64,000 nt of DNA from an uncultured Clostridia bacterium (GTDB lineage Bacteria; Bacillota; Clostridia; Christensenellales; CAG-917): assembly GCA_947625225.1 (NCBI GenBank), contig CANQNQ010000002.1, forward strand, positions 37,397 through 101,396, read 5' to 3'. The notes under the pieces are model-generated. The model made no database searches, was not told the DNA's origin, and saw only the letters and a program-made list of their open reading frames with translations. Of this stretch, positions 6,638 to 25,186 are shown one piece after another (within the stretch, counting starts at the first letter, position 1; every line of letters begins with the position of its first letter). The position numbers and the translations under genes are program-made.

Positions 6638-7110
6638 TGTCAAAGCGCAAAATGATGACGCGCGCGGACAAGTTCTGCGCGCGTTTTGCATACCTGTATT
6701 GCAAAATTTGCTTTGGAATGCGCATTAGGCATACGTTTTTTTGCGAGGATATACGCCGTTTGTTGCGCTTTGATGGCTTTTGGTATTTCCGCTTTAATTC
6801 GTATGGCGGAGAGACGTTATCGTGTGTATAGTCAGTCCCTTAGTTATGCGTATTTTATTTGTAAATTGTAGGGCGGCATTGGAGCAGCGTGCGGCGGCGC
6901 GTTTTTGGCATATATCAAAGTCGATAAGTCCCTCCGGCGTGGCGTATTTGGTCTGTTGACTGCCGTGAGGCGGGCGGTATGGCTTTGCGCCCGCGCTGAA
7001 CACTTTTTGTATTTTATAAAGAAAACCTTAAAATTCCTGTCGAAATTTGTTGATAAAATTTTATCGTTGTGCTAAAATATCCGCAATATGTTTGCGGAGG
7101 CGGCGCTACT

Positions 7111-7203
7111 ATGAAGGGTATGCTGATGTCCCATGTGGAGACCATTTGCGTGGCGGTGTCGGGTGAAGTGCCCTCTGTTTCCTCCGCTGAGTATCTCGCC
7201 TGA
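7111..7203 (+). CDS. Putative 30-aa leader peptide upstream of uraA (MKGMLMSHVETICVAVSGEVPSVSSAEYLA)
   Basis: GGAGG at 7096-7100, ATG 7111, in-frame TGA 7201-7203 placed 2 nt before a terminator hairpin. Confidence 0.5.
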   Translation: MKGMLMSHVETICVAVSGEVPSVSSAEYLA

Positions 7204-7205
7204 AT

Positions 7206-7235
7206 AGATGTCCCGTTTGCGGACATCTTTTTTTT
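7206..7235 (+). terminator. Leader (attenuator) intrinsic terminator before uraA
   Basis: AGATGTCC-cgtttgc-GGACATCT followed by a T run, 27 nt upstream of the uraA ATG. Confidence 0.75.
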
Positions 7236-7262
7236 GGATAATAAACATATAGGAGAAATGTT

Positions 7263-8852
7263 ATGGCAAACAACAATCTCATCTATGACGTGCAAGATGT
7301 GCCAAAGCCGTTTGGTAAATTGCTGGTCTTTGCGTTCCAGCAGGTGTTGGCTATCATGGCTGCAACGATAGCCGTGCCGACGATCACAGGACTGAGTGTA
7401 CAGATCCCCGCTGCAATTCTCGGCGCGGGCATAGGTACGATAGTGTACCTGCTGTTCACCAAGTTCAAGAGCCCCGTTTTCCTTGGCAGTTCGTTCGCAT
7501 TCCTCAGCTCGTTGAGCGTGGCAATCTGCTATGGCTATTTGGGCATCATCGTAGGCTCTATCTTCGCAGGACTTGTGTATGTGGTGCTGGCGATCATCAT
7601 CCACTTTGCGGGCACCAAATGGGTAAGCAAACTGATGCCTCCCGTCATCATCGGACCCACCGTCGCCCTCATCGGTCTTTCTCTTGCGGGCAACGCAATG
7701 GGCGATATGGTCACGGCAAGCGGAGCGGAAACATTAACCTTGATCAATGGTGCGCCGGTAAATTATAATCTTATAAGTTTGCTGTGCGGACTTGTGACTT
7801 TCTTCACCATCATCATCTGCTCCTGCCAAAAGAGATTCAAGAGCATGAAGTTGATCCCCTTCATCATTGGTATTGGCGCCGGCTATCTTGTGGCGACCAT
7901 CTTCTCCGCAATCGGCTACGGCGCGAAAGTGGAGTATCTCAAGATAATCGACTGGTCCCCCTTGGTGGACAATTTCAAGGTGCTTGGCGACAGCGCTGCT
8001 AAGGCGGGCGATAAAGTGCAGGCGTTCCTCACATATCCCGACTTCGCGCTCATCGAGGCTATCAAGGAAATCGTTAATAAGGGCGTCAATGCGGATATTT
8101 TGAAAGCGTCCGACAACGCAGGTCAACTGCTCAACGGCGCAGGCGTTGCAGAGGTCGCGCTGGCATTCATCCCCGTGGCATTGGTCGTGTTTGCAGAGCA
8201 TATCGCAGACCACAAGAACCTCAGCTCTATCATCGGTCAGGACCTCGTCGAAGGCGAGCCCGGTCTGAAGAGAACGCTGCTCGGCGACGGCGTAGGCTCC
8301 ATCGCGGGCACAGTGTTCGGCTATTGCCCCAACACCACCTACGGCGAGTCCGTCGGCTGCGTGGCTATCACCAGAAACGCGTCGGTAGCTACAATATTTA
8401 TGGCTGCTTGCATGTGCATCGTACTCAGCTTCATCAGCCCGCTTATGTGCCTGCTGCGCACCATCCCCAGCTGCGTTATGGGCGGCGTGTGCCTCACCCT
8501 GTACGGATTTATAGCGGTCAGCGGTCTCAAGATGTTCAAGCACATCGACCTTGGCGAAAACAAGAATCTGTTTGTCGTCAGCGCCATCCTCATTGCGGGC
8601 ATTGGCGGTCTGTCCATCCAGATCCCGTACGCGATTGAAGGCAACGGCTTGGTCACCAAGACCATCCAGATCACGTCCATCGCGACCGCGCTCATTCTGG
8701 GCATTGTTACCTACGCAGTCATCGGCGCCATCGAGAAGCGCGGCGGTAAGAACGAGGATAAGCCCGAAAGCCTTATGGCGGCTCCCGTCGAGGCGGACAA
8801 CACCTACGAGGTGGGCGCCAAGGAAGCTGCTGAAACTAATCAGGACGACTAA
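7263..8852 (+). CDS. uraA: Uracil/xanthine permease (NCS2 family)
   Basis: 'SPVFLGSSFAF', 'EHIADH' and 'PNTTYGESVG' NCS2 signature; adjacent to upp. Confidence 0.9.
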   Translation: MANNNLIYDVQDVPKPFGKLLVFAFQQVLAIMAATIAVPTITGLSVQIPAAILGAGIGTIVYLLFTKFKSPVFLGSSFAFLSSLSVAICYGYLGIIVGSIFAGLVYVVLAIIIHFAGTKWVSKLMPPVIIGPTVALIGLSLAGNAMGDMVTASGAETLTLINGAPVNYNLISLLCGLVTFFTIIICSCQKRFKSMKLIPFIIGIGAGYLVATIFSAIGYGAKVEYLKIIDWSPLVDNFKVLGDSAAKAGDKVQAFLTYPDFALIEAIKEIVNKGVNADILKASDNAGQLLNGAGVAEVALAFIPVALVVFAEHIADHKNLSSIIGQDLVEGEPGLKRTLLGDGVGSIAGTVFGYCPNTTYGESVGCVAITRNASVATIFMAACMCIVLSFISPLMCLLRTIPSCVMGGVCLTLYGFIAVSGLKMFKHIDLGENKNLFVVSAILIAGIGGLSIQIPYAIEGNGLVTKTIQITSIATALILGIVTYAVIGAIEKRGGKNEDKPESLMAAPVEADNTYEVGAKEAAETNQDD

Positions 8853-8861
8853 GGAAAAATT

Positions 8862-8898
8862 GCGGCATACGGGATATGGCTCCCGTATGCCGTTTTTT
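8862..8898 (+). terminator. Intrinsic terminator after uraA
   Basis: GCGGCATACGGGA...TCCCGTATGCCGT stem plus T run. Confidence 0.7.
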
Positions 8899-8938
8899 AG
8901 AAAAATGCAACCTGTATTACAATTTTTGAGGTAAAATT

Positions 8939-9577
8939 ATGAAACAATATCCCAATGTAACCATCTTCAATCATCCGCTCATCCAGCACAAGGTCGCCAT
9001 CTTGCGCGACAAAAACACCGGGATGAAGGAGTTCCGCGAGCTCGTCGAGGAGATAACCACCCTTATGGTGTTCGAGGCGTTCAAGGACGTCCCCACCAAG
9101 ACCGTCACCGTGGAAACTCCGCTTGAAACCGTGCCTCAGACCATGGTGGCAGACAATGCCGTCACCATCGTGCCAATCCTGCGCGCGGGCCTCGGCATGG
9201 TCAATGGTGTGCATACGCTGTTTCCCACAGCCAGAGTAGGGCACATCGGTCTCTACCGCGACGAGGAGACTCTCGAGCCGCACGAGTACTACTGCAAGCT
9301 CCCCGAGGGCATCGAGAACAGCATCGCCATCTTGCTTGACCCCATGCTCGCCACCGGCGGCAGCGCAGTCGGAGCCATCGACCTGCTCAAAAAGCGCGGC
9401 TGCAAGGAGATCCGCCTTATGAACATCATCGGCGTCCCTCAGGGCGTCGAAGCCGTCGCCTCCGCGCATCCCGACGTGAAGATCTATGTGTCCACTCTCG
9501 ACCGCCAGCTCAACGATGTGGGCTATATTTTGCCGGGATTGGGGGATGCGGGCGATCGCCTCTTCGGCACCAAATAA
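8939..9577 (+). CDS. upp: Uracil phosphoribosyltransferase
   Basis: 'HPLIQHK', '[10 protein letters not shown]', '[11 protein letters not shown]' and '[17 protein letters not shown]'. Confidence 0.98.
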
Positions 9578-10049
9578 AACCGCACCAGACAGCGAATAAC
9601 TGCGTCAGGGGCAACGCTCCGACGACCGTGTACAAAAAGTACACTAGGTCGCCGATTCGTTGCCCCTTTCTTGTTCTTCATCTGCCCGGAGCGGTTTTAT
9701 GCAAACCAACAAAATTACATTGGGCGGCTAGGCAAACCTCGCGCTATACATCTAAATCACACAGTTTTTATATATAAATCAGGGGTCCCCAAGCAAATGA
9801 GCTTGCGAATTTGTTGGGGTAAATCTGGGGTCCCCGCGAAAACACCTTGTGTTTTTGTGGGGTATAGGAGCGAATAACTGTGTCAACGTCCGTTTTCTTC
9901 ACGTCATGTACAGCAAGTACATTAGGCGTTTGAGAACGGACGTTTCCTTGTTCTTCATCTGCCTGGAGCGGTTTTATGTTAATCAACAATTACATTAGTC
10001 GGCTTGGCAAGCCCTTCTTTCGCGCTATGCATCTAAATCACGCAGTTTT
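9576..10049. repeat. Composite structured intergenic repeat, locus A (two ~190-bp hairpin units around two GGGGTCCCC hairpins)
   Basis: Units at 9576-9769 and 9869-10049 share AGCGAATAACTG(C/T)GTCA...TGTACA(AA/GC)AAGTACA...CTTGTTCTTCATCTGCC; hairpins at 9782-9823 and 9827-9866; homologous to 43071-43578. Confidence 0.9.
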
Positions 10050-10110
10050 AAGTTATAGGGATTTTAAGTGTCTTTTTTATGCCTAAAACTCAATACAGGT
10101 GGCAAAAATA

Positions 10111-10908
10111 TCATAAATAGTGCAGCCAATCTATATCTTTTTCTTCCGTGGCGGGCAGGTGCGCGCGCATAAAGGCCAGTGTGTAGGTCACGGTAAGTTC
10201 GCGTTGGAGCTGTTTGTCCTCTTCCGATATCCCGTCGCCGTCGCCGTTGAACATGCCAAGTATGCCGTCCGCGTCCATTGTGCTGAAGCTCATGTGGGCG
10301 CCGGGGGTTATCATGTGGTGCTCCAGCATATCCTCGTCCAGGCGGGAGAGTGCGGACGCTTTCATTTCGTCCGTCAGCACGTGGTCGCCTGCCGCTTCCA
10401 GCAGCAGAGTGGGCATATTCAGCCCGTGGATATTGTCCTCGAGGTAGCAAAGCGGGGAGTACAGAATGGCGCCAAGCGCCTTGTCGGGGTTTTCCTGTAT
10501 CCTCTTGACCGCGGCACCGCCTCCCTGCGAGTGGCCGCCTATAAAGAACTGCGTGCCCTCAAAGTCGTAGAACGCGTATTCTGTTTCTTTGTAGTCCATA
10601 TACGTCATGTACAGATCCGCCAGCGGGAACACCATGAGATAGCCCTGCGCGGCAAGCGGCATGGCGAGATATTCGTAAAGTGAGGGGGCGATAGCGGTGC
10701 CCACGTAGAAGATCATGCCGTACTTGCAATTTACGCCCTTGGGCTTGTAGGCGACGTAGTCCTCGGTCTCGACAATTTCCACTTCAAAGTCGTTGTCGAC
10801 GCTGTAGTCAACGCTTTTGGAGCTGTTGCAGGCAAAAAGCGCAAGCGAACATGCGGCAAGCATGGCAATCGCAACGATGATCAGCGCGGTTTTCTTGATT
10901 TTTTGCAT
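10111..10908 (-). CDS. Alpha/beta-hydrolase lipoprotein (Abhydrolase_5-like)
   Basis: Lipobox 'LFAC'; nucleophile elbow 'GGHSQGG'; 'GDHVL' Asp and 'GAHMSF' His; GGAGG RBS before the ATG at 10908. Confidence 0.85.
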   Translation of the reverse strand: MQKIKKTALIIVAIAMLAACSLALFACNSSKSVDYSVDNDFEVEIVETEDYVAYKPKGVNCKYGMIFYVGTAIAPSLYEYLAMPLAAQGYLMVFPLADLYMTYMDYKETEYAFYDFEGTQFFIGGHSQGGGAAVKRIQENPDKALGAILYSPLCYLEDNIHGLNMPTLLLEAAGDHVLTDEMKASALSRLDEDMLEHHMITPGAHMSFSTMDADGILGMFNGDGDGISEEDKQLQRELTVTYTLAFMRAHLPATEEKDIDWLHYL

Positions 10909-11066
10909 ATGTATGTCCTCCTCTTTTTCACAGTATAACATGTGCGGTGGGATATTGCCATACCCAATTTGTACAATTTGTATGATGCCCTGTAAAATTT
11001 GTATATAATAATGACAAATTTGCCGCTGTCTATGGCAAAATTCAAAAAAGATGTTATAATCAAAAT

Positions 11067-12503
11067 ATGAAAGACGCTACTCACGACAACTTTAAGGGCG
11101 GAACGCTGCAAAAAGCCATAATGGGGTACACTTCGGGTGCCGCTACGCCTTTTCATATGCCCGGGCACAAGCGCAACGCGACTTATGATCACCTTATGGG
11201 GGTCGAAAAGTTGGATTTGACCGAGATAGACGGCTTCGATGACCTCCATGCGCCAAAGGGGATACTCCTTGAGGCGCAAAAGAGGGCGAAAGAGGTGTTT
11301 TCCGTCCCCCATTGCCGATTTTTGGTGAATGGCAGTACCGTCGGCATACTTGCCGGCGTCAAGGCGACGACAAAACGCGGGGATAGGGCGCTTATAGCGC
11401 GCAACTGTCATCGCAGCGTATATAACGCGGTCGAGCTGTGCGGCTTGAGCGTAAATTACATAATGCCCCAATGCGCGAGCGGGTTTTACGGCTGTGTATC
11501 TCCCGACGAGGTGGAGCGCGCTCTGAGCGCGGACGGCGGTATAAAATTGGTGGTTTTGACGTCCCCCACCTACGAGGGCGTGATCTCCGACATACAAAGC
11601 ATTGCCGAGGTATGCCACCGCCACTATGCAGTACTTATGGTGGATGAGGCGCACGGCGCGCATCTGGGACTGTGCGGCGCATTTTGCAAGAGCGCGCGTC
11701 AGCTCGGCGCGGATATAGTGGTCAACAGCCTGCACAAGACTCTGCCCAGCCTCACGCAGACGGCGTTGTTGCACGTGACAAGCGACAGAGTGGATATAAG
11801 CAAAGTGGACGAGGCGCTCGCCGTGTTTGAGACCAGCTCCCCGTCCTATGTGCTGATGTGCAGCATTGACGGCGCGGTAAATTATATTGAGGAACACGGC
11901 AAGGAAGATCTGAAGCGTTGGCATGACGATGTGGTATCACTGCGCGGCAGGCTCGGGACGCTGTTTGAGGATAGCGAGATAAAGCTGTTTGAGGGCGAAG
12001 GCGCGTATGCGCTTGACGTCACAAAGTTGTGCCTGCTGTGCTCCGACGGCTACGCGCTGGCAAGGGAATTGAGGGCGCAAGGGATAGAGGTGGAGATGGC
12101 GGCCCCGTCGCATGTGCTTGCGCTGAGCGGAATGGGCGACACAGCGCAGACTTTTGACAGGCTTTATGAGGCGTTGAAAGTGGTAAAGACTCAATACAGG
12201 TACGCAAAATTGCCATATGGAGCGTCTTTTTACGGGGTGCCGGAGAGGGCGTGTGCCGCATATGAAGTTGACGCGCTTGAGCAGGAGCAGTTGCCTTTAA
12301 ACAGCTGCGACGGCAGGATCTCCGCCGAAAACGTGTGGGTGTATCCTCCCGGCTCGCCCGTCATCGTCAAGGGCGAAAGAGTGGACGGCGATACGCTGAG
12401 CAGGCTCGTCGCGCTTGACAAATGCGGCGCGGCGGTGCAAAGCTCCCGCGGGGATATGCCAAAGGCGCTGTACGTCCTGAGAGAATTGCGCGGGCACGCT
12501 TGA
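11067..12503 (+). CDS. Orn/Lys/Arg decarboxylase (PLP fold type I, YaaO-like)
   Basis: 'FHMPGHK', 'LVNGSTVGI', 'VDEAHGAH', 'SLHKTL' (PLP lysine), 'TSSPSY' and 'YPPG'. Confidence 0.9.
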   Translation: MKDATHDNFKGGTLQKAIMGYTSGAATPFHMPGHKRNATYDHLMGVEKLDLTEIDGFDDLHAPKGILLEAQKRAKEVFSVPHCRFLVNGSTVGILAGVKATTKRGDRALIARNCHRSVYNAVELCGLSVNYIMPQCASGFYGCVSPDEVERALSADGGIKLVVLTSPTYEGVISDIQSIAEVCHRHYAVLMVDEAHGAHLGLCGAFCKSARQLGADIVVNSLHKTLPSLTQTALLHVTSDRVDISKVDEALAVFETSSPSYVLMCSIDGAVNYIEEHGKEDLKRWHDDVVSLRGRLGTLFEDSEIKLFEGEGAYALDVTKLCLLCSDGYALARELRAQGIEVEMAAPSHVLALSGMGDTAQTFDRLYEALKVVKTQYRYAKLPYGASFYGVPERACAAYEVDALEQEQLPLNSCDGRISAENVWVYPPGSPVIVKGERVDGDTLSRLVALDKCGAAVQSSRGDMPKALYVLRELRGHA

Positions 12504-12528
12504 CAATGCGCGCATATTGGAATATAAT
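12500..12528 (+). promoter_or_regulatory. Consensus sigma-A promoter of scfAB
   Basis: TTGACA-17 bp-TATAAT. Confidence 0.75.
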
Positions 12529-12560
12529 GTGTACATCAGCAGACAAAAAAGGAGATTGAT

Positions 12561-12707
12561 ATGAAGAGAATCGTTACCCTCAAGACTCGCGACCTCGACG
12601 CGAGCAGGAACAACGGCGGTTGCGGCGAGTGCCAAACCTCCTGCCAATCCGCGTGCAAGACGTCCTGCGGCGTTGCCAATCAGAAGTGCGAGAAGCAGGC
12701 AAAATAA
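12561..12707 (+). CDS. scfA: SCIFF six-cysteine ranthipeptide precursor (48 aa; not in the ORF track)
   Basis: AAGGAG RBS; translation MKRIVTLKTRDLDASRNNGGCGECQTSCQSACKTSCGVANQKCEKQAK. Confidence 0.97.
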   Translation: MKRIVTLKTRDLDASRNNGGCGECQTSCQSACKTSCGVANQKCEKQAK

Positions 12708-12766
12708 TAATTTTGCGACAGAGCAAGCGCCTAGCTTTATGCTAGGCATTTTTTTAAACAAAGAAA

Positions 12767-14146: not shown

Positions 14147-14165
14147 AACAGACAAAAATATATAG

Positions 14166-14215
14166 AAAAACTCAATACAGGTTGCAATTTTGCAAATCTG
14201 TATTGAGTTTTTTTT
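14166..14215. terminator. Bidirectional terminator formed by an inverted pair of the array motif
   Basis: AAAAACTCAATACAGGTTGC-aattttgc-AAATCTGTATTGAGTTTTT between the convergent scfB and DUF975 genes. Confidence 0.7.
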
Positions 14216-14233
14216 GTTGGGAAAAATTGCTTG

Positions 14234-15028
14234 TTAGTCCTCTGTTTGTACGGGCGGCTGAGAGTTTAGCTGTTCAATCGCAAGATATTGTTTTGCCAGC
14301 GCGATATTATAGTACGGGACGACATAGAGAACAAAGAAGCCCAGTACGATTGTCAGCAGCCACCAACCGATAAAGCTCAATTTCAAAGCCAATATCTTGC
14401 CGAAATTTTTGTTTACCAATTCAAATCCGTATCTTATGGCATCTGTCGGGCGGACGTTTTGGTCGCGGTTGAGTTTGAAAAATGCGTAGTCGCTGACGCT
14501 GTTTACCCAAGCCATGAAGAAAAGTAGGCCTATCCCGTAAAATGCCAAGAGTATAAACAATATCGGCATAAAGATGGATACTGCCAGCAATATGATCAAC
14601 AACACCACCGGCAACAACTTTATGAGAGACATCAGTATGTAAATGGCAAAGGCGGGCATTATGTTGTTGAAGCCGCGATAGGTGGATTTTGTGCCTTCGC
14701 ATTTGTTGCTTGCCACGTCCAGCCAAAAACCCGCATAACTGCTGCTTATTGCGCCGCCCACAAATATCGGGCCGAATATTGTGCCTAAAAGAAGCGAACC
14801 GAATTGTATAAGACCAAGCAAAATTTGTGTGAGTACGCTGTAGCCGAAATTCTTTTTGAGCGCCAAGCGCGCTTGTGTCGTCAGCTGTCTGCTTGGGGGC
14901 ATAGCGTCGTAACCAACGCTGAGTTCGCCTCCGCATACAGGGCAAAAGCTTACGCCGCCTGCATTGTTTCTGAAAACTACGCGGTCGATCTGTGCGCCGC
15001 ATTTTGGACAGTACATAATTACCTCCAT
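14234..15028 (-). CDS. DUF975-family membrane protein with N-terminal double zinc ribbon
   Basis: 'YCPKCG...FCPVCG'; 'LKLSFIGWWLL...YVVPYYNIA' DUF975 C-terminal motif; multiple TM helices. Confidence 0.75.
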   Translation of the reverse strand: MEVIMYCPKCGAQIDRVVFRNNAGGVSFCPVCGGELSVGYDAMPPSRQLTTQARLALKKNFGYSVLTQILLGLIQFGSLLLGTIFGPIFVGGAISSSYAGFWLDVASNKCEGTKSTYRGFNNIMPAFAIYILMSLIKLLPVVLLIILLAVSIFMPILFILLAFYGIGLLFFMAWVNSVSDYAFFKLNRDQNVRPTDAIRYGFELVNKNFGKILALKLSFIGWWLLTIVLGFFVLYVVPYYNIALAKQYLAIEQLNSQPPVQTED

Positions 15029-15047
15029 AGTATAAATTGTTGTAACT

Positions 15048-15088: not shown

Positions 15089-15110
15089 AAATTCAGTTAA
15101 TATATGTGCT

Positions 15111-15320
15111 ATGCAGGACAATGTGTTTGGCAAAAGGTTAAAATATCTCAGGCAGGAGCAGGGCGTCTCTCAAAAGGAGCTGGGCGCAAGGCTGGGGTAT
15201 TGCAATCAGACCGTCAGCTTTTGGGAGTCGGGACAGCGCGAGCCGGATCTGGACGCTATAAAAAAGATAGCGGTATATTTTGACGTTACTGCCGATTTCC
15301 TGTTGGGGCTGTCGGATTGA
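15111..15320 (+). CDS. XRE/Cro-CI family HTH regulator
   Basis: 'FGKRLKYLRQEQGVSQKELG...TVSFWESGQREPD...YFDVTADFLLG'. Confidence 0.92.
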   Translation: MQDNVFGKRLKYLRQEQGVSQKELGARLGYCNQTVSFWESGQREPDLDAIKKIAVYFDVTADFLLGLSD

Positions 15321-15397
15321 TGGAGTAAAACGTTTTTATTTACAAAAAAAACTCAATACAGGTTGCAATTTTGCAATATGTATGCAAAAATGTTGAT

Positions 15398-15880: not shown

Positions 15881-16011
15881 GAATTTTTGGGATTTATAGG
15901 CAATTTTTATCGATTTGGCCTCAATTTTACGCTTAAATATTGACAAAACCCGTCAAAATGGGTATATTTTTATCGATATCAACATATCGCATCACCATTT
16001 TGGAGTGGAAT

Positions 16012-16656
16012 ATGGAAGTTTCAAAGGCGACCCTCAACAGATTGCCCGCGTACCTCAGATTTTTGTATGAGCTGGACAGGCAGGGCGTGACGCGCGTTTC
16101 AAGCACCACCATCGCGGGAGGTCTGGACCTCAACCCCGTGCAGGTGCGCAAGGACATTGCGGTGGTGTCCACCGTGGCGGGCAAGCCAAAGACGGGATAT
16201 ATAACAAAGGAGCTAATCGCCGACCTCGAAAACTTTTTGGGCTATCACAACACGCGCGACGCCATATTGGTGGGCGCGGGCGGTCTCGGACATGCAATAC
16301 TCGGTTATGACGGCTTTGCAAAGTATGGGCTGAACGTGGTGGCGGCTTTCGACATAGACGGCGGCGTAGTGGGCACGTCCATCAACGGCAAGCCCGTCTA
16401 CGATATGTCCCGTCTGCCCGAGATAGTCGGGCGCTTCAACATACAGCTTGGCATCATCACGGTGCCGTCGCAGGCAGCGCAGGAGGTGGCGGACAGGATG
16501 GTCGCCGCGGGCATAAAAGCGATATGGAACTTCGCCGCAAAGCACCTCAACGTACCCGCCAATATAGCGATGAAACATGAGGACCTCGCCGCGTCGTTGG
16601 CGCTTTTGCGCATGCAATTGGTCAGCATGGACGACGCGAACAATCAACCGCAATAA
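16012..16656 (+). CDS. rex: Redox-sensing transcriptional repressor Rex
   Basis: 'ATLNRLPAYLR', 'QVRKD', Rossmann 'LVGAGGLGHA' and 'GIKAIWNFA'; GGAG RBS. Confidence 0.92.
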   Translation: MEVSKATLNRLPAYLRFLYELDRQGVTRVSSTTIAGGLDLNPVQVRKDIAVVSTVAGKPKTGYITKELIADLENFLGYHNTRDAILVGAGGLGHAILGYDGFAKYGLNVVAAFDIDGGVVGTSINGKPVYDMSRLPEIVGRFNIQLGIITVPSQAAQEVADRMVAAGIKAIWNFAAKHLNVPANIAMKHEDLAASLALLRMQLVSMDDANNQPQ

Positions 16657-16689
16657 CCGCGAATTTTGCAATACAGGTATGTATTTTAT

Positions 16690-16722
16690 AAAAAAAAAGC
16701 GACGCCATGCGTCGCTTTTTTT
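16690..16722. terminator. Bidirectional terminator between rex and glyQS
   Basis: A9-GCGACGC-cat-GCGTCGC-T7. Confidence 0.85.
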
Positions 16723-16740
16723 GTGCATTTACAGTTTATA

Positions 16741-18126
16741 TCAATATTCAAACTGCTCGGCAAGATAGCCGTCAAGCTCCTCAATGGGCAGACGCACCTG
16801 AGCCATGGTGTCGCGCTCGCGCACGGTCACGCAGCCGTCCTCAAGCGTATCAAAGTCCACCGTCACGCAGAAGGGAGTGCCTATCTCGTCCTGGCGGCGG
16901 TAGCGCTTGCCGATGGAACCGCTGCCGTCGAAGTCGCACGCATAGCGCTTGGAGAGCGCAGCGTATATTTCCTCCGCCTTTTCGTTAAGCTGCTTTTGCA
17001 GGGGCAGCACCGCCACTTTTACGGGAGCGATGGCGTGATGCAGATGCAGCACAACGCGGGTGTCGTTTTCGCCGACTTGCTCCTCGTCATAGGCGTCGCA
17101 GAGGAAGGCGAGGAACACTCTGTCCGCGCCGAGGGACGGCTCGATGACGTAGGGAACAAACTTCTCGTTGGTGACGGGATCGATGTAGCTGAGGTCCTTG
17201 CCGCTGGTCTTGATGTGTTGATTGAGGTCGTAGTCCGTGCGGTCCGCGACGCCCCACAGCTCGCCCCAGCCGAAGGGGAATTTGTACTCGAAATCGGTGG
17301 TCGCCTTGGAGTAGAAGCACAGCTCCTCCTTGTCGTGGTCGCGCAGTTTGAGGTTTTCGTCCTTCATGCCCAGCTCAAGCAGCCACTTGTGGCAGAAGTC
17401 CTTCCAATAGGCAAACCACTCCAGGTCGGTGCCCGGACGGCAGAAAAATTCAAGCTCCATTTGCTCAAACTCGCGTATGCGGAAAATGAAGTTGCCGGGG
17501 GTGATCTCGTTGCGGAAGCTCTTGCCTATCTGACCTATGCCGAATGGCAGCTTCTTGCGGGTGGTGCGCTGCACGTTTTTGAAGTTGACAAATATGCCTT
17601 GCGCGGTCTCGGGGCGCAGGTAGACGGTGGAGGTGCTGTCCTCTGTCACGCCTATGAAGGTCTTGAACATCAGGTTGAACTTTCTGACTCCCGTGAAGTC
17701 GGATTTGCCGCAGACGGGGCAGGGGATGTTGTGCTCGTGCACGTAGGTCTCCATCTCCTCGTTGCTCCAGCCGGCGATGTTTTGCTCGATGCCGTGCTTT
17801 GCCATATAGTCCTCGATGAGGTCATCCGCGCGGTGGCGGGATTTGCAATTTTTGCAATCCATCAGCGGGTCGGAAAAGCCGCCTATGTGACCGGAAGCCT
17901 GCCAGGTGGTGGGGTTCATCAAAATGGCGCTGTCAAGCCCGACGTTGTAGGGGTTTTCCACCACAAACTTTTTCCACCAAGCCTGCTTGATGTTGTTTTT
18001 CATCTGCGCGCCGAGGGGGCCGTAGTCCCAGGAGTTGGAAAGTCCGCCGTATATCTCGCTGCCGGGATACACAAAGCCCCTGTTTTTTGCGAGGGCGACC
18101 AGCTTGTCCATAGTGAGTTGTGCCAT
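16741..18126 (-). CDS. glyQS: Glycine--tRNA ligase, homodimeric (alpha2) type
   Basis: 'EIYGG...WDYGPLG', '[11 protein letters not shown]', '[21 protein letters not shown]' and '[22 protein letters not shown]'; AAGGAG RBS. Confidence 0.98.
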
Positions 18127-18464
18127 AATTTTTGCTCCTTTCCCTATATGGATAATAGGGGGATAAATTTTGTTAATAGAATGATAAAATAACCGCGCGC
18201 AAAAGTCAAACGATTGGCGACAAGTGATAAATTGTTGTATTTTGAGCGATGTAAAAAGAAGTGTAAACAAAAAAGTTGCTATTTTGTAAAAATGATTTAT
18301 AATGATTATGACAAACCTTTTAAGGACGCCCGCATGGGCGTGCCGATGGCAGGCACACAAGCGGAAAAACTCAATACAGGTTGCAATTTTGTCATATGTA
18401 TCGCAAAAATTGCGGTATAGGCATAAATTTTAAGACGGGCAATGCCCGCGCAGTGAGGAAAAGC

Positions 18465-19304
18465 ATGAAAGAGATCTTGGGGAAAACATTTGGGGAGGAG
18501 CGCGCGCTCTACGCCATAAAGGACGCGCGCGTAAAGGATTGCCGCTTCGAAGGCGTAGAGGACGGCGAATCTTTTTTGAAGGAATGCGAAAACGTCTCCG
18601 TTGAGGATTGCTATATGGACTTGCGCTATCCCATGTGGCACGCGCGCTCGCTGTCCATAAAGGGTGGCGAGATGACCTTGCGTTGCCGCGCGGCGCTGTG
18701 GTACGACAGCGCGGTCTCAATAGAGAGCTGCAAAATAGACGGCGTGAAGGCGCTGAGGGAGAGCAGGGATATTTCCATTGTAGCCTGCGACATCAACTCG
18801 CCGGAATTTTGCTGGCGCTGCAAAAACGTGAGCGTGCGCGGGGGCAGCGTTGAGGGCGAATACGCCTTTTTCGAGAGCGAAAACGTCAGCGTGGACGGTA
18901 TAAAGTTCAACGGCAAATACTCCTTCCAATATATCAAGGGGCTCAGCGTGACCAACAGCGTGCTAAAGACCAAGGACGCCTTTTGGCACACGCAGGGCGC
19001 GGTCATAAAGGATTGCGTGATAGACGGCGAGTATCTCGGCTGGTATTCGGACGGGCTGACGCTTATAAGGTGCCGTATAAAGGGGACTCAGCCGCTGTGC
19101 TACTGCACAAATCTTAAACTTATAGATTGTACCATGGAGGACTGTGACCTCTCCTTTGAGTACAGCGAAGTGGACGCGGATATAAAGGGCGCGGTGACGT
19201 CCGTCAAGAATCCGCTGAAGGGCAGGATAGTTGCGGACGGCTACGGCGAGATAATACTTAAAGACAGCAAGTATCCCTGCGAGGCGGAGATAGTCGTGAG
19301 ATGA
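18465..19304 (+). CDS. DUF3737 family beta-helix protein
   Basis: 'ERALY', 'DGESFLKE', 'LRYPMWH', 'TKDAFW', 'GEYLGW', 'QPLCY' and 'DLSFEYS...SVKNP'. Confidence 0.88.
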   Translation: MKEILGKTFGEERALYAIKDARVKDCRFEGVEDGESFLKECENVSVEDCYMDLRYPMWHARSLSIKGGEMTLRCRAALWYDSAVSIESCKIDGVKALRESRDISIVACDINSPEFCWRCKNVSVRGGSVEGEYAFFESENVSVDGIKFNGKYSFQYIKGLSVTNSVLKTKDAFWHTQGAVIKDCVIDGEYLGWYSDGLTLIRCRIKGTQPLCYCTNLKLIDCTMEDCDLSFEYSEVDADIKGAVTSVKNPLKGRIVADGYGEIILKDSKYPCEAEIVVR

Positions 19305-19394
19305 AATATATGCGAAATATCGCATACAGGTGCCACTTTTGATACGCATATAAGAAAAAAGCCGCGGTTGACCCGCGGCTTTTTCCATGCGCGC

Positions 19395-19574
19395 TTACTT
19401 GCAACCGCCGCCGCACATACAGGAGAGCAGCAATATAAGCCACACAATGTCGCAGCTGTTGACGTTCATGCCGCATCCGCAACCGCCGCCGCAGTTGTTG
19501 AGCAGAAGCATCAGGAGAATGAGGTCACAGCAGTTTGCGCCGCATCCGTTTGCGCCGTTAGAGAAAAAGTTCAT
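19395..19574 (-). CDS. Small Cys/Gly-rich hydrophobic protein (59 aa; not in the ORF track)
   Basis: GGAGG RBS; MNFFSNGANGCGANCCDLILLMLLLNNCGGGCGCGMNVNSCDIVWLILLLSCMCGGGCK; terminator hairpin directly downstream (~19354-19385). Confidence 0.8.
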   Translation of the reverse strand: MNFFSNGANGCGANCCDLILLMLLLNNCGGGCGCGMNVNSCDIVWLILLLSCMCGGGCK

Positions 19575-19680
19575 GGTATGTACCTCCGGATATATTAGGA
19601 TCGCTCCTACATTACCTTACGCGTTTTGAAAAAAATGTGTTACGGCGCATTGAAAACGGCGCAAGAAAATATATTTTGAT

Positions 19681-20145
19681 GTGGAGCAACTCAAGCGCAT
19701 GATCGGCATAGTCGCTGCGCTGTTCTGTACGCTTGTCGTGGCAGGGCTGTGCTCATATTGCTTCAAAATGGACCATGCGTGGTACAACGCGCTTTCAAAG
19801 CCGCAATTTTTGCTGTCCGGCGGGTGGTTTTCGCTGTTTGTGGGCGCAAGCTACCTGTCCTGCATACTGTCCGTAAGCCGCCTTGTGGAGTACAAACATC
19901 TGTTTCCGAGCATGCTGTTTTTCGTGCTGCTGGGAACGGGCTGCGTGCTGTTTGTGTGGAGTTTTTTCACATTGAAAAACATGCTTGCGGCATTGATATT
20001 TATGACGTTGGTGCTGGCGATGGCGTACACGCTGTTTTTGAGGTTTTTGACCAAGGAAGTGCGCCTCGCGCTTGAATTTTTGCCCACCTTGCTGTTTGAC
20101 ATCTACGCGTTTATAGTGGTGCTGTGCATCGTCATGGCAAACTGA
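19681..20145 (+). CDS. TspO/MBR-family membrane protein
   Basis: 'AWYNALSKPQF...WF' motif, about 5 TM helices, about 150 aa. Confidence 0.7.
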   Translation: MEQLKRMIGIVAALFCTLVVAGLCSYCFKMDHAWYNALSKPQFLLSGGWFSLFVGASYLSCILSVSRLVEYKHLFPSMLFFVLLGTGCVLFVWSFFTLKNMLAALIFMTLVLAMAYTLFLRFLTKEVRLALEFLPTLLFDIYAFIVVLCIVMAN

Positions 20146-20267
20146 AAATTTTGTACGCGCACACAATCAACTTTGTACTTGATAATACATTATAACTTTG
20201 GTATACTAAGTATAACGGTTGGAGGACGGCGGAACGCCGTCCGGCAAATGGATATTTTGGGTGTGAT

Positions 20268-21035
20268 ATGATAGTTACAATGGACATAGGCAACACAAAC
20301 GTCAAGTTCGGCGTGTTCGACGGGGACGCGCCCGTTGTCACGTGGCGTTTTTCCACAAAGGCGTCCCGTACGTCGGACGAGTACGGCTCGATATTGTCCG
20401 ACCTGCTTGCGCGCTCCGGCATCAAGGCGAGCGAAGTCGAGGCGGCGGTGCTGTCGTCGGTGGCGCCCGCGCTGAACTACACGCTGGAGCACACCTGCAA
20501 GGACTATCTTGGCGTGACGCCCGTGTGGGTGACTCCGTCTACGGACGTGGGGATAAAGGTGCGCTACGACAATCCGCGGGAGCTTGGTTCGGACAGGCTG
20601 GTCGCTGCTGCGGCGGCGTACATGTTGTACGGCGGGCCGGTCATAGTGGTGGACTTCGGCTCGGCGACGACGTTCAATCTGGTCAACAAAAAGGGCGAGT
20701 TCATCGGCGGCGCAATCGCTCCCGGCATAAAGACTGCGGCGGAATCGCTGGTGAATACCGCCGCTAAGCTGCCGCGCGTGGAGCTTGCCATGCCCGAAAG
20801 TATAGTCGGCAGAAGCACCACAGAGTGCATGCAGAGCGGCATAGTGTACGGCTATACGGGATTGGTGAAGTATATGCTGGAAAGCTACAGGGCGCTGGAC
20901 GAGATGGCGGGCGCAAAAGTCGTCGCCACGGGTGGTCTGTGCGAGCTGGTGGCGGATCAGTCGCTGTTTGACGTGATGGACAGGGCGCTGGCGCTCAAGG
21001 GGCTGAAGATGGCCTACGAGCGCAACAAAAAGTGA
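20268..21035 (+). CDS. coaX: Type III pantothenate kinase
   Basis: 'MDIGNTN', 'SSVAP', 'LGSDR', 'VDFGSATT', 'GGAIAPG' and 'VATGG'. Confidence 0.95.
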   Translation: MIVTMDIGNTNVKFGVFDGDAPVVTWRFSTKASRTSDEYGSILSDLLARSGIKASEVEAAVLSSVAPALNYTLEHTCKDYLGVTPVWVTPSTDVGIKVRYDNPRELGSDRLVAAAAAYMLYGGPVIVVDFGSATTFNLVNKKGEFIGGAIAPGIKTAAESLVNTAAKLPRVELAMPESIVGRSTTECMQSGIVYGYTGLVKYMLESYRALDEMAGAKVVATGGLCELVADQSLFDVMDRALALKGLKMAYERNKK

Positions 21036-21040
21036 GAATT

Positions 21041-22573
21041 ATGCAAAGGAAATTCAACCAATTTGATAGGGCGGCGGGGGTGTTGCTCAACATCTCGTCG
21101 TTGCCGAGCGAGTATGGCATAGGGTGCTTTTCGCGCGACGTAAACGCGTTTGCGGACCTGATCGCGGACATGGGCTTCCGCTATTGGCAGATACTGCCCA
21201 TCACCACGATAGGCATGGGCAATTCGCCATATTCGGGCATATCGTCCTTCGCGGGCAACAGGCTGTACATCTGCCCCAACGACCTCGAGGGGCTGCTCAG
21301 CGACGAGGAAGTCGCCGCGTGCAAGTACCACGGCGAGCCTTACAGGACGGACTACGAGTTTGCAAAACTCAATACAGGTCGCTATTTGAGGCTTGCTTTT
21401 TCGCGTATAACGCCTGAGGTGAGGGCGCGTATGGACGCTTTCCGCAGGGAGAACGCGGATTGGGTTGAGGATTACGCGCTGTTTATGGCGCTGGCGGCGG
21501 ACTACTCCACGGCGTGGTGGAAGTGGGAGGACGGACTAAAGTTCAGGCGCCCCGACGCGCTTGAAAAGGCGCGCGCGCAATACGCCGAGGATATAGACTT
21601 CTACGTGTTTGAACAATATCAGTTTTTCCGCCAATGGACGAGGCTCAAGTCGGAGGTAAACCGCAGGGGTGTGTCCGTCATAGGTGACTTGCCGTTTTAT
21701 GTGGCGACGGATAGCGTGGACGTGTGGGCAAACGCGGACAAATTTCAGCTTGACGAGAAGCTGCTGCCCAAGGCGATCGCGGGCGTGCCGCCGGATCTGT
21801 TTGCGGCAAACGGACAGGTGTGGGGCAATTGCCTCTACGACTTCGAGGCGATGAAGGCGGATGATTATAGTTGGTGGCGGCGTCGCATCTCGCATTGCCT
21901 GAAGATGTATGACGCGTTGAGGCTGGATCATTTCAGGGCATTTTACAACTATTTTTCCATCCCCGCGTGCGATTACAACACCGCCAAAAACGGGCATTGG
22001 GAGCCGGGACCTGCGGACAGCTTGCTCGACCTCGTGCGGCATGACAACCCCGACGCGCTGTTCATTGCGGAGGACCTGGGGCTTATAGACGAGGATTGCC
22101 GCCGCTATATCGATTCGACGGGCTTGCCTACAATGCGCGTGTTCCAATTCGGTTTTGACGGCACGCCAAGCGGCCACATTCCCTTCAGATACGAGGTGAA
22201 CACGGTGGCGTACTCCGGCACGCACGACAACAACACCACGCTGGGCTGGCTGTACGAGCTTAACGAAGGCGCGCGCGACTACGTGCTGAAATATTGCGGC
22301 TTCACGGGCGCGGGCTGGGGCGCGGGCGGACCGGACTCCAAATCCATGCATGCGATAATCAAGGTGCTGATGATGTCGTCGTCCTCGCTGGTGGTGTTGC
22401 CTTTTCAGGATATGCTGGGCTACGGCGGCGATACACGCATGAACATTCCCGGGGTGCCCGAAGGCAATTGGGAGTACCGCTTGCCTTACCACCTGATGGC
22501 GACCGTGGACAGGGACTTTTTCCTCGACCTCAACAAGACCTACGGCAGAATTGGCGGGGGAGTGAGAAGATGA
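21041..22573 (+). CDS. malQ: 4-alpha-glucanotransferase (amylomaltase, GH77)
   Basis: 'WQILP', 'SPYS', 'GDLPFYV', 'GVPPDLF...GQVWGN', 'RLDHFRAF', 'AEDLG', 'GTHDNNT' and 'RMNIPG'. Confidence 0.96.
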   Translation: MQRKFNQFDRAAGVLLNISSLPSEYGIGCFSRDVNAFADLIADMGFRYWQILPITTIGMGNSPYSGISSFAGNRLYICPNDLEGLLSDEEVAACKYHGEPYRTDYEFAKLNTGRYLRLAFSRITPEVRARMDAFRRENADWVEDYALFMALAADYSTAWWKWEDGLKFRRPDALEKARAQYAEDIDFYVFEQYQFFRQWTRLKSEVNRRGVSVIGDLPFYVATDSVDVWANADKFQLDEKLLPKAIAGVPPDLFAANGQVWGNCLYDFEAMKADDYSWWRRRISHCLKMYDALRLDHFRAFYNYFSIPACDYNTAKNGHWEPGPADSLLDLVRHDNPDALFIAEDLGLIDEDCRRYIDSTGLPTMRVFQFGFDGTPSGHIPFRYEVNTVAYSGTHDNNTTLGWLYELNEGARDYVLKYCGFTGAGWGAGGPDSKSMHAIIKVLMMSSSSLVVLPFQDMLGYGGDTRMNIPGVPEGNWEYRLPYHLMATVDRDFFLDLNKTYGRIGGGVRR

Positions 22574-23061
22574 TATTGTTTTTTGTGCGTGCGGATGTGG
22601 ACAGCGACAGATTTGTCAAACATTGCTACGCCCATTACCGCGACATAATGCGCCAATACAACCCTAATTTGCCACCTCAGGTGCGCATTTTGCGTGAGGA
22701 AGGCAAAAAACCGAGGCTGGATACGGACGAGGCGTACTTCAATTTGTCCCACTCCCACGGGCTGAGCGTGTTGGCTATATCCCACGCGCCTATAGGCGTT
22801 GACGTGGAGATGGTGCGCCCCATAGACTTTGCCAAGTTCGACTTCATCTCGGCAGAGAACGAGCAGGATTTCTTTGAACAATGGACGCAGCGCGAAAGCT
22901 ACGTCAAGTTTACGGGCGAGGGGCTTGGCGCCATGCGCAAACAGCCGCCCGCCGACGCGCACTTCGAGCATTTTGATGTGTTTGACGGCTATCACGTGTG
23001 CGTGTGCGCAGAGGAGCAGAACGTAACCGCGTACGAGATGAACGCGGAGGATATAGATTGA
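22570..23061 (+). CDS. Sfp-type 4'-phosphopantetheinyl transferase
   Basis: 'GKKP', 'FNLSHS', 'IGVDVE' and 'WTQRESYVKFTGEGL'; ATGA overlap with malQ. Confidence 0.88.
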   Translation: MILFFVRADVDSDRFVKHCYAHYRDIMRQYNPNLPPQVRILREEGKKPRLDTDEAYFNLSHSHGLSVLAISHAPIGVDVEMVRPIDFAKFDFISAENEQDFFEQWTQRESYVKFTGEGLGAMRKQPPADAHFEHFDVFDGYHVCVCAEEQNVTAYEMNAEDID

Positions 23062-23094
23062 TATTGCGCCGCAAATGCGGCAAAGGAGTATATT

Positions 23095-23328
23095 ATGGTT
23101 TTTGAAAAATTGAAGGACTTGATTGTCAAACAAATGGGCGTCGATCGCGACAGCATAACGCTTGACAGCGACATCTTTGACGACATTGGCGCGGACAGCC
23201 TGGACATCGTGGAGATGCTGATGGACGTGGAAAGCCAGTGGAACATAGTCGTCGACGACAGCGAGATCTTGGGCTTCCGCACAGTGGGCGACGTGGTGAA
23301 GTTGGTGGAACAAAAAATTGCCAAGTGA
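23095..23328 (+). CDS. acpP: Acyl carrier protein
   Basis: 'DDIGADSLDIVEMLM' phosphopantetheine serine; 77 aa, acidic. Confidence 0.93.
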   Translation: MVFEKLKDLIVKQMGVDRDSITLDSDIFDDIGADSLDIVEMLMDVESQWNIVVDDSEILGFRTVGDVVKLVEQKIAK

Positions 23329-23390
23329 GCGCAATTCTATATCAAAGGAACAAGGATAGGTAAAATCTTGCCTATTCGAAATTTTGTAGT

Positions 23391-23420
23391 TAAAAACCTG
23401 CTTTTTCAAGCAGGTTTTTA
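23391..23420. terminator. Bidirectional terminator acpP/clc
   Basis: TAAAAACCTGCTT-tttc-AAGCAGGTTTTTA. Confidence 0.8.
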
Positions 23421-23433
23421 TGTTGTTTTAAGT

Positions 23434-25098
23434 TTAGTCGGTTGAATTGGCGCTCTCGTCTTTTTGGGAAGCGTCATATTTGTATTCGGGCGCGGAAATG
23501 TCCTTGCGCGGGCGGTCGCCGACTATTTGAGCTATGTCGTCTTCCACGACGCGCTTGTCGGAGGTCTGCGCCTTTATGTGCAATATGTCGCCGCTTTCCA
23601 GTTCGGTCTCGGAGGATGGGACTACGGCCTTGCCATCGCGCTCAAGCAGCACCACCGTCATGTCGCTCGGCCAGATTATGTCGCGTATCTCGCGTCCGTC
23701 CGCATGCGAGCCGCGGCGAACTTTGGCGGTGAATTGGTGGATTGAGGGTTCGTTCTCGTCAAGCATCCACTCAAGGATGAGGTCGTAAAGCGGCTTGTGA
23801 CGGAACAGCTCGCTGACAAAGTAGCCTATCAGCACGCCTATTATCACGGGTATAAGCAGGGTGAATTGCCACGTGAACTCGATCACCATCACTATCGCTG
23901 TCAGCGGCGCCTTGACGGTGGAGGCGAATATGGTCGCCATGCATATAAGCACGATGGCGTCCGCGTATGCTTTGTCCATGCCCATCATTATGCACAGTTG
24001 CGCCATAAACGCGCCTACGCACGCGCCCAGCGCGATTATTGGGACAAAGATGCCTGCGGGGAGCTGCGCGCCAATGTTTAGGCACAGCGAAATGACGCGC
24101 AAAACTATCAATATCGCCAACGTCGCAAGCAGTGGAGCGCCGAATATGCCGCCGAGGGTCATCTCCTCCGCGCCGCCGTCCGTGCCCAGAGCCTCGATGA
24201 GGGAGTGACCACCGCCCGTGGCAAATACGCTTATAAGCCCCACCGCGCCCGCAAACAGCAGCGGAATGAGGACTTTTACAAAGCCGCGCAGGGCGGTCAT
24301 TTTGGAGAACATCCGTCCGCTCAAAGAGGACAATTTGTATATCGCAATGCCCAAAAACGCGCATACTATGGCCGCCAAAACAACATACAGGTATGCATTT
24401 ATGGGCAGATCCACCACTTTGAAGTCGTGGAACGCCGCGCCCGTGCTCAGCTTCAGCGCGCCGCGGAGCAGGTTGCGGGTGACCACCGCGCCTATGACGG
24501 AAGCAAAGGTGGTGATCACAAGCGGCGGAGTGAAGCGCCTGTGCGCCTCTTCAAGCGCGAACAGTACGCCGGTTATGGGAGCGTTGGACGCCACCGCCAC
24601 GCCAGCGCTTGCGCCCGCCGATATATAAAGGCGCCTCTCCATGTCGGGACGGCGAAGCAATGTGCCCGCTCCGTCCGAAGTCATCGCGCCGATAAGCATG
24701 GATGGGCCCTCCGCGCCCGCCGTAACGCCCATAAACATGACAAACAGCGAGGAAGCCGCCATCGCGGGCAGCACCTTGTACCACTTCATGCGCAGCATAC
24801 CCCTGGATGCGCCCTCGGCTTGCGGCACGCCGTTGCCCCTTATCATCGGCACGAAGTACATCGCGACGCTCAGCAAAAACGCGCCCGCCGCCAGCACGAC
24901 GAACAGCAGGGGGATGAACGCGGGATTTTCGCGGATGTAGATATACAGTTCGCCGGAATATTCGCTTATTATGTCCGCAGCTATGTTAAAAAATGTTACC
25001 ACCACGCCCGTCAGCACGCCCGTCAGCAATCCCATTGCCAACAGTTGCGCGGCGCTTTTGAGCGCGTTGAGTTTGCTTTTGTCCGCTTTGATTTCCAT
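23434..25098 (-). CDS. ClC-family H+/Cl- transporter with C-terminal TrkA-C domain
   Basis: 'GNGVPQ', 'GAEGPS', 'NAPITG', 'PAGIFVP', 'VKAPLTA' and 'PLYD'; C-terminal 'ELESGDILHI'. Confidence 0.88.
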   Translation of the reverse strand: MEIKADKSKLNALKSAAQLLAMGLLTGVLTGVVVTFFNIAADIISEYSGELYIYIRENPAFIPLLFVVLAAGAFLLSVAMYFVPMIRGNGVPQAEGASRGMLRMKWYKVLPAMAASSLFVMFMGVTAGAEGPSMLIGAMTSDGAGTLLRRPDMERRLYISAGASAGVAVASNAPITGVLFALEEAHRRFTPPLVITTFASVIGAVVTRNLLRGALKLSTGAAFHDFKVVDLPINAYLYVVLAAIVCAFLGIAIYKLSSLSGRMFSKMTALRGFVKVLIPLLFAGAVGLISVFATGGGHSLIEALGTDGGAEEMTLGGIFGAPLLATLAILIVLRVISLCLNIGAQLPAGIFVPIIALGACVGAFMAQLCIMMGMDKAYADAIVLICMATIFASTVKAPLTAIVMVIEFTWQFTLLIPVIIGVLIGYFVSELFRHKPLYDLILEWMLDENEPSIHQFTAKVRRGSHADGREIRDIIWPSDMTVVLLERDGKAVVPSSETELESGDILHIKAQTSDKRVVEDDIAQIVGDRPRKDISAPEYKYDASQKDESANSTD

Positions 25099-25186
25099 AT
25101 ATACCTCGAAGTGTCAGCGCCGCGGAAAAGCGGCTTTGCGGGTTGTGAATTTATGACAAAATTGCCACCTGTATTGAGTTTTCAGC

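Follow-up and report, generated by a model that had tools for sequence, protein, structure and literature searches.

An asymmetric, A/T-flanked DNA word in all-or-none zones of an uncultured gut Clostridia chromosome, with possible likeness to DNA uptake signals

The stretch considered here is a 64,000-nucleotide window of an uncultured Clostridia bacterium of the order Christensenellales (contig CANQNQ010000002.1, positions 37,397 to 101,396 of the forward strand), the left part of which carries repeated copies of a short, non-palindromic DNA word. The genome that holds the window, referred to as G000, comprises 1,518,458 bp on 31 contigs and is 98% complete; the window corresponds to C2:37397-101396 in its contig numbering. 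The word is treated at three lengths, as an invariant 8-mer core (ATACAGGT), a 10-mer (CAATACAGGT) and a 13-mer (ACTCAATACAGGT). A first-pass annotation of the window had described the copies as a locus-restricted, evenly spaced array, and had taken them for a candidate centromere- or macrodomain-like binding system. The stretch is present in rabbit-gut metagenome runs of several studies; in other rabbit-gut samples, contigs that are 3-5% divergent cross the sites, one of them gap-free. The genes that neighbor the sites in the window are functionally unrelated, and the sites are placed among them as follows (positions are those of the window).

6692-6701, minus strand: exact CAATACAGGT, 55 bp after the stop (6637) of the gene for a 1529-amino-acid (aa) repeat-bearing surface protein.
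8910-8919, minus strand: TAATACAGGT, with the exact 8-mer core and both A/T tracts, in the spacer from a permease stop (8852) to the upp start (8939), adjoining a hairpin at 8862-8893.
10088-10100, plus strand: exact 13-mer, between the converging genes for upp (stop 9577) and a minus-strand hydrolase (stop at 10111).
12189-12201, plus strand: exact 13-mer, within an Orn/Lys/Arg decarboxylase gene (11067-12503), in the sense direction.
14170-14205, no single strand: inverted pair of the exact 13-mer (14170-14182, plus) and CAATACAGAT (14196-14205, minus), in the convergent spacer between a radical-SAM gene (stop 14146) and a DUF975 gene (stop 14234).
15351-15363, plus strand: exact 13-mer, 31 bp after the stop of a 69-aa XRE gene (15111-15320) and upstream of a YbaK-like gene.
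16669-16678, plus strand: exact 10-mer, 13 bp after the stop of the Rex gene (15940-16656).
18369-18381, plus strand: exact 13-mer, upstream of a DUF3737 gene; the sole window site in a divergent spacer.
19322-19331, plus strand: GCATACAGGT, with the exact 8-mer core, 18 bp after the DUF3737 stop (19304).
21367-21379, plus strand: exact 13-mer, within malQ (21032-22573); three orthologues without the motif can be aligned to it codon for codon.
24383-24392, plus strand: ACATACAGGT, with the exact 8-mer core, antisense within a ClC channel gene (23434-25098, minus strand).
25167-25179, minus strand: exact 13-mer, 8 bp after the stop of a WYL gene (25187); the ClC start (25098) follows 69 bp downstream.

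The exact copies listed in the first-pass annotation are borne out. Seven exact 13-mers (against 0.00 in 100 shuffles) and two additional exact 10-mers, at 6692 and 16669, give nine exact copies in the window; allowing up to one mismatch raises the count of the 10-mer to 12, where 2.51 ± 1.59 would be expected. Of the near copies, those at 8910, 19322 and 24383 contain the exact core, and the one at 14196 departs from it by a single mismatch. The presence of copies within coding sequences, in differing frames, is confirmed as well. In the right-hand 39 kb, where no copy had been noted, there is a single ATACAGGT, at 41705, and it lacks A/T flanks; the copy at 25167-25179 is the final site ahead of a 72-kb site-free stretch. 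The pair at 14170-14205, together with an outer A-run and T-run, has the shape of a hairpin and resembles a two-way terminator. The motif fits none of the palindromic centromere or macrodomain consensus sequences known to us, as had been claimed, and no Rfam family matches anywhere in the window.

The anatomy of the word is best seen genome-wide. The core occurs 156 times in G000 and is preceded by CA in 74 cases, by GC in 22, and by CG and AC in 10 each; there are 26 exact 13-mers, and the 74 exact 10-mers compare with 2.17 expected under an order-3 Markov model (34-fold). A structured site, defined as W4-N4-ATACAGGT-N4-W4, is found 93 times, against once for the same pattern read backwards, and copies of the word are put at 93-109. 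The flanking tracts are A4-5 or T4-5, an A-run or a T-run being possible on either side, while the four bases that separate the core from each tract hold little information. A/T content around the core peaks at -28, -17, -7, +14, +24 and +36, a period of ~10.5 bp that weakens outward to about ±35 bp; peaks recurring once per helical turn point to DNA that is bent or wrapped. In the structured setting one-mismatch cores number 29, against ~6.5 expected from the ratio given by shuffled cores, and nine of these are ATACATGT. An inverted, imperfect partner stands at +20 or +21 in 10 of the 93 sites and produces an A-run, hairpin, T-run shape; no direct-repeat partner occurs at any fixed offset among the G000 sites.

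The exact 10-mers lie on 20 of the 31 contigs, so the array is not confined to the window locus and the description 'locus-restricted' fails. The 93 structured sites are distributed in zones. Dense zones hold 2.2-3.6 sites per 10 kb, and structured sites are absent from C1 (291 kb, carrying dnaA at 237.6 kb) and from C2:63-135 kb, C4:36-132 kb, C5:1-66 kb and C7:28-60 kb. Counts per 10 kb have a variance/mean ratio of 2.43, a value that 2000 random placements did not approach (1.49 at most), which upholds the domain-like distribution that had been proposed; six zone edges lie inside contigs, so that the dense domains number three or more, and the notion of a single local array gives way to that of a genome-wide word. 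Even spacing is likewise lost: the 81 same-contig gaps below 12 kb have a mean of 2821 bp and a standard deviation of 2539 (coefficient of variation 0.90), which is near-random with a floor of ~600 bp. The first-pass annotation had reasoned that uniform density would speak for an uptake-sequence or a repetitive extragenic palindromic (REP)-like repeat; the outcome is intermediate, the word being genome-wide and its density far from uniform. Spacer supply is similar in dense and free zones and is not the reason for the zoning, since spacers have 57% A+T in both and the free zones offer 530 spacers (93.6 kb) with zero sites. Each dense zone reaches the end of a contig, and dense contigs are numerous among the small ones; metagenome assembly may therefore tend to break in the motif-rich parts, strain differences being one conceivable cause.

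Relatives were compared as one genome per species, many of them incomplete, in 52 species of the genus and in a wider sample of 400 genomes of the order. Structured sites number 93 in G000, 26 in G060 and 8 in G007, which are not obviously mutual closest relatives, and 0-2 in the remaining 49 species. In the order sample raised counts appear in genus g53 (18, 17 and 9), g92 (11 and 9) and g145 (7). When the 26 sites of G060 are set against the zones of G000, dense zones take 8, intermediate zones 6 and free zones 12, so the zones are not conserved; conservation of the cluster in close relatives, which had been named as the mark of a functional array, is not observed, and the motif is missing from 49 of the 52 species. 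No equivalent A/T-flanked 8-mer was found in the closed genome G047. A 16-mer scan of public species genomes gave, among the matches listed, mostly single and scattered hits, and a 20-mer scan of metagenome contigs gave eight matches, none related to G000. A literature search by sequence with four strings returned, among the matches listed, primers, barcodes and similar, and no bacterial motif.

The zoning raises the possibility of a domain-specific architectural array, in which a lineage-specific nucleoid- or chromosome-organizing protein would bind the word, wrap the phased A/T flanks and so mark particular domains; this extension of the first-pass proposal to the entire genome is nearly as likely as the uptake-signal-like word that is tentatively preferred below. 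It would account for the sharp all-or-none zones, for which spacer supply offers no explanation, and for the bending that phased A/T tracts imply. When the sites are placed by gene order on G047, whose dnaA lies at 832.5 kb and whose GC skew has its minimum near 820 kb, their density is highest 200-400 kb from the origin on one side and 300-600 kb from it on the other; it is low closer to the origin than ±200 kb and farther out than ±600 kb. We infer from this order, carried across ~59% protein identity, that the dense zones occupy the middle of both chromosome arms and avoid the origin and the terminus-proximal parts. The same dependence on a distant relative counts against an architectural array, as do the absence of the word from nearly all congeners, the lack of zone conservation in G060, the at least six zone edges (hence at least three separate domains) and the failure to find a binder. 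The sites of known organizers (matS/MatP, Noc, SlmA, RacA ram, and parS) likewise occur in tens of copies in parts of a chromosome, some of them in genes; to our knowledge they are palindromic and conserved across whole clades, whereas the ATACAGGT word is not symmetric, is spread over three or more zones, and could be assigned no cognate protein. A more specific version, which is rather unlikely, has a horizontally mobile protein reading the 8-bp word in its phased A/T tracts, with sites written by substitution into all-or-none domains on both arms and excluded around origin and terminus. If that were so, this kind of chromosome marking would be new and the word would be a determinant of arm domains without known counterpart, and an architectural role in general would provide a sequence handle on chromosome-arm domains; we know of no determinant of such domains.

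Relative to genes and strands the sites are placed in a characteristic way. Structured sites lie on the plus strand in 46 cases and on the minus strand in 47, and replication direction is ignored, with 56 of 109 sites on the GC-skew leading strand and 53 against it; 55 of 109 are on the majority gene strand. By crude gene calls, 15 of the 56 convergent spacers in the site-holding zones of G000 are occupied, as are 28 of the 161 tandem and 3 of the 63 divergent ones, and the same bias appears in G060 (7, 7, and 1) and G007 (2, 2, and 0). In the window, spacer sites lie 8-58 bp beyond stop codons, and orientation with respect to neighboring genes is random. This 3'-end bias and the paucity of sites in divergent spacers argue against promoters or operators and fit elements that are tolerated, or that act, at gene 3' ends. 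Restriction to the promoters of a coherent regulon, which had been put forward as the sign of an ordinary transcription-factor site, is therefore not what is seen: only 3 of 46 spacer sites are divergent and 15 of 46 convergent, and the neighbors are unrelated.

An ordinary transcription-factor regulon or special promoter is accordingly very improbable and largely refuted by placement, and the core is much sharper than those of usual operators. The point in its favor is a site in the pur operon, in the spacer between purN and an IMP-cyclohydrolase-like gene, which recurs in four species (G000 at C22:8921, G007, G008, and G061), two of which are otherwise nearly devoid of sites. An element of gene 3' ends, whose bound protein would act as an orientation-independent roadblock, terminator helper or supercoil-relief site between genes, agrees with the distances from stop codons, with the preference for convergent and tandem spacers in three species and with the A-run, hairpin, T-run structures formed by some sites. 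It is nevertheless improbable, because the site-free zones are equally rich in gene ends, ordinary G+C-rich terminators are present, 49 of the 52 congeners manage without the word, and copies inside genes would be harmful roadblocks.

Copies of the word arose where they stand. By the crude longest-open-reading-frame (ORF) calls made for this analysis, 46 sites lie inside ORFs, some of them as artefacts of starts called too far upstream; 21 in-gene sites could be aligned to a G047 orthologue, and 15 of these are gap-free within six residues on either side. In-gene copies use six frame/strand combinations and yield recurring peptides, among them LNTG, NAIQV, NLY and PV. In malQ, G000 encodes T-G-R where three orthologues have A/S-E-K/R, with no insertion or deletion; within 10 adjacent bases, 5-8 depart from the orthologues, the flanks being unaltered, and the flanking AAAACTCAA and ATTTG are already present in G015. 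The first-pass annotation had asked whether the malQ codons were bent toward the motif, and the orthologues, which lack it, indicate that the G000 codons were changed to it by substitution. Its view that selection acts on DNA rather than on protein or promoter position is strengthened by the six frames and strands and by a malQ motif that replaces residues conserved in three orthologues. Flank identity among sites averages 12.2 of 28 positions, with a maximum of 23; these dissimilar flanks and the gap-free in-gene alignments show that copies were made in place and not pasted by transposition. Nearby sites are not significantly more alike than distant ones (permutation p about 0.09), which gives no sign of local copying. 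The 5-8 changes in 10 adjacent malQ bases leave room for short-patch conversion.

A REP/REPIN-like selfish repeat is to be weighed here, with either a REP-associated tyrosine transposase or short-patch templated conversion as its means of spread; such a repeat is unlikely, more so than arm-domain marking. The changes in malQ are more patch-like than independent point changes, about one-tenth of the sites are inverted doublets, and the patchy species spread and variable copy number are as expected of such repeats. G000 also has, where a dense zone meets its limit (C4:160-921), a gene for a Y1 transposase-like protein of 253 aa. This protein carries a helix-turn-helix in its C-terminal part, and its best NCBIfam match is NF047646 (REP-associated tyrosine transposase; 71 bits, below the cut-off of 80); other Y1 matches in the genus look IS200-like (~130 bits). 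Shared with REP/REPIN elements are the intergenic position at gene 3' ends in either orientation, the inverted doublets, a species-variable number and the presence of a transposase-like gene. The word differs in having a non-palindromic single unit and a conservation limited to the core of 8-10 bp, and its copies arise in place, the in-gene copies mostly without insertion or deletion and with flanks no more alike among neighbors. The transposase-like gene is neither flanked by the word nor co-occurring with it: no motif copy with at most one mismatch lies outside the gene within 2.9 kb, the contig ending 160 bp beyond the gene, and a Y1 transposase was not found in G060 and is present in nine motif-less species. 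The REP clusters of E. coli that bear IHF sites number ~100 at transcription-unit ends, and an IHF site consists of an asymmetric core and an A-tract; the word is similar in all of these respects, but its core does not fit the IHF consensus as we know it and is much sharper.

A protein that reads the word would be expected to track it among genomes. The XRE and WYL proteins, proposed as binders because of their proximity to the array, do not: XRE orthologues (60-73% identity) occur in at least nine species that have 0-2 sites, and a 71%-identical WYL counterpart is encoded in G015, a genome with no sites. Both were excluded as binders because they fail to co-occur with the motif, and no other candidate tracks the motif among the genomes compared. 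Genes common with G060 or G007 near the sites of those genomes are only enzymes, a transporter and an integrase, and the G000-specific genes in dense zones are mostly enzymes, together with a MarR-type regulator and the pair described next.

This pair consists of a TraG/VirD4-type coupling protein gene (C2:131426-133159) and P0001 (C2:133173-133781, 202 aa), which matches FtsK_gamma weakly (25.3 bits, cut-off 30.6) and resembles, in its C-terminal part, the end of the FtsK of the genus; P0001 appears to carry two FtsK-gamma-like winged helices, and the pair looks like a transfer-module remnant. FtsK gamma domains read 8-bp non-palindromic words, and words read by translocases are strand-skewed. 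It could be supposed that the word belongs to a DNA-transfer module and is read by the tandem winged helices of P0001 beside its type IV coupling protein: the pair, on the free/dense boundary, stands 1.8 kb ahead of where the sites of a dense zone start, and the best full-length homologue of P0001 is in motif-bearing G060 (30% identity). That homologue is located between pnp and pyrC, outside any transfer module, a full-length homologue also exists in G017, which has no sites, and G007 has only an N-terminal match. The KOPS read by FtsK, the SRS read by SpoIIIE, and Chi resemble the word as exact non-palindromic 8-bp sequences, and here too a gamma-domain-like protein is encoded nearby; the ATACAGGT sites differ in being unskewed (56 versus 53), mostly intergenic, and joined to A/T tracts that are part of the site. 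On this balance a transfer-module word is highly improbable, slightly more so than a 3'-end element.

In its anatomy and in the mode of origin of its copies the word seems closest to DNA uptake sequences. Uptake sequences are described as short conserved words that often form terminator hairpins (passages cited from PMC1852404), and those of Haemophilus as a core with AT tracts that are believed to help the DNA bend; the Haemophilus sequences have an uneven distribution, and a type IV pilus machine reads them (passages cited from PMC7811141). The G000 word shares with uptake signal sequences (USS) and DNA uptake sequences (DUS) a short, invariant and over-represented core with few degenerate copies (93 perfect structured sites against 29 with one mismatch), restriction to particular lineages, equal use of the strands, inverted terminator pairs and in-gene copies made by substitution; the A/T-tract flanks are shared with the Haemophilus USS, and pilus, comEC and dprA genes are present in G000. 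The word differs in having A/T tracts on both sides of the core, and its share of inverted pairs (10 of 93) is below the figures given for Neisseria in the part of PMC1852404 cited here.

G000 has a full type IV pilus island at C10:19872-34426, with pilB, pilT, pilC, pilD (prepilin peptidase), pilM/N/O-like genes and four pilin-like genes (C10:32550-34426); the island also holds a hybrid sensor kinase. In the genus this island is found in G000 and G007 only, both of which bear the motif, and is absent from G047 and from 49 of the 52 congeners; G004 has a different type IV pilus island. comEC is present in 50 of 52 genomes of the genus, including G000, and dprA in all five genomes tested, with a second copy only in G000 and G007; this second, divergent dprA-like gene is at C1:203370-203960 in G000 and at C7:18122-18709 in G007. 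In g92, a pilB-pilT pair occurs in both motif-bearing species and is absent from both motif-poor species. An uptake machine consisting of a pilus or pseudopilus ATPase, ComEC and DprA is present in G000, G007, G174 and G351.

The reading tentatively preferred is that the word is uptake-signal-like, DNA that carries it being preferentially imported and recombined; this is possible rather than probable. A sequence-specific protein would bind ATACAGGT, usually preceded by CA, and bend the DNA, with the A/T tracts one helical turn from the core on each side aiding the bend. Copies would be written in situ by base substitution, not by transposition, and would persist where they do least harm, just beyond stop codons. 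DNA bearing the word would be preferentially bound, imported and recombined, so that the word spreads by biased exchange, and the all-or-none zones might be tracts imported from a motif-rich close relative.

Several observations weigh against an uptake-signal-like word. Its 93-109 copies are far below the density of uptake sequences, which are 'generally' present at 1,000 or more per genome in the account of PMC1852404, as far as cited. Only 4 of the 93 sites fall in 48% of G000 (eleven contigs), and such a near-empty half is not predicted by a drive acting in place. In other respects the dense and free zones are much alike: 60% of genes have a G047 orthologue in dense and in free zones alike, mean identity to those orthologues is 58.8% in dense and 59.7% in free zones, and 4-mer make-up hardly separates the two (area under the curve 0.68). 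The pilus island of G000 contains no motif site. No pilus ATPase was found in half of the motif-bearing genomes, namely G060 (26 sites), G371 (7) and the three g53 species G329 (18), G428 (17) and G100 (9), and pilC, pilD and pilins were likewise not found in G060. Across the order sample an ATPase is present in 3 of 7 genomes with at least 7 sites, against 138 of 401 overall, so that the link with pili is suggestive within two genera and absent overall; type IV pili may instead serve motility or adhesion. The host is a gut Clostridia bacterium of Gram-positive type, and sequence-specific uptake is described only in Pasteurellaceae and Neisseriaceae, according to the passages cited from PMC7811141. 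A mosaic of two organisms, considered separately as a source of the zones, was rejected on the 4-mer figure and on the equal orthologue share and identity.

Should the word prove to mark DNA for uptake or exchange, an uncultured gut Clostridia lineage would provide the first 'self' tag of a sequence-specific kind beyond two proteobacterial families, and the all-or-none zones would be a visible record of imported tracts. Whether uptake-like or architectural, the word reveals a strong pressure at the level of DNA that overrides conserved protein residues, and it defines a 26-bp probe, AAAACTCAATACAGGTTGCAATTTTG, with which a reader protein could be fished out.

Further repeats and genes were noted in passing. 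The over-represented words of G047 belong to two longer repeat families unrelated to the motif: one of ~70 nt or more, in 33 copies, changes strand in the interval 731-797 kb, not far from dnaA (832.5 kb), and the other is an element in 22 copies. The most over-represented 10-mers of G000 itself stem from a CRISPR (clustered regularly interspaced short palindromic repeats) array at C30:17-~3700, with 54 copies of a 33-nt repeat and spacers of ~34-36 nt. In the window, the 500-bp gap between upp and the hydrolase gene holds, at 9774-9869, a short dispersed repeat with many matches in G060 and G007 (74-90% identity over 40-90 nt), at which the contigs of other strains are rearranged. The best-conserved gene of the region lies at 16741-18360 on the minus strand, with 79-86% nucleotide identity across the genus; the overlapping plus-strand ORF at 16666-18192 is without a Pfam match and is probably no gene.

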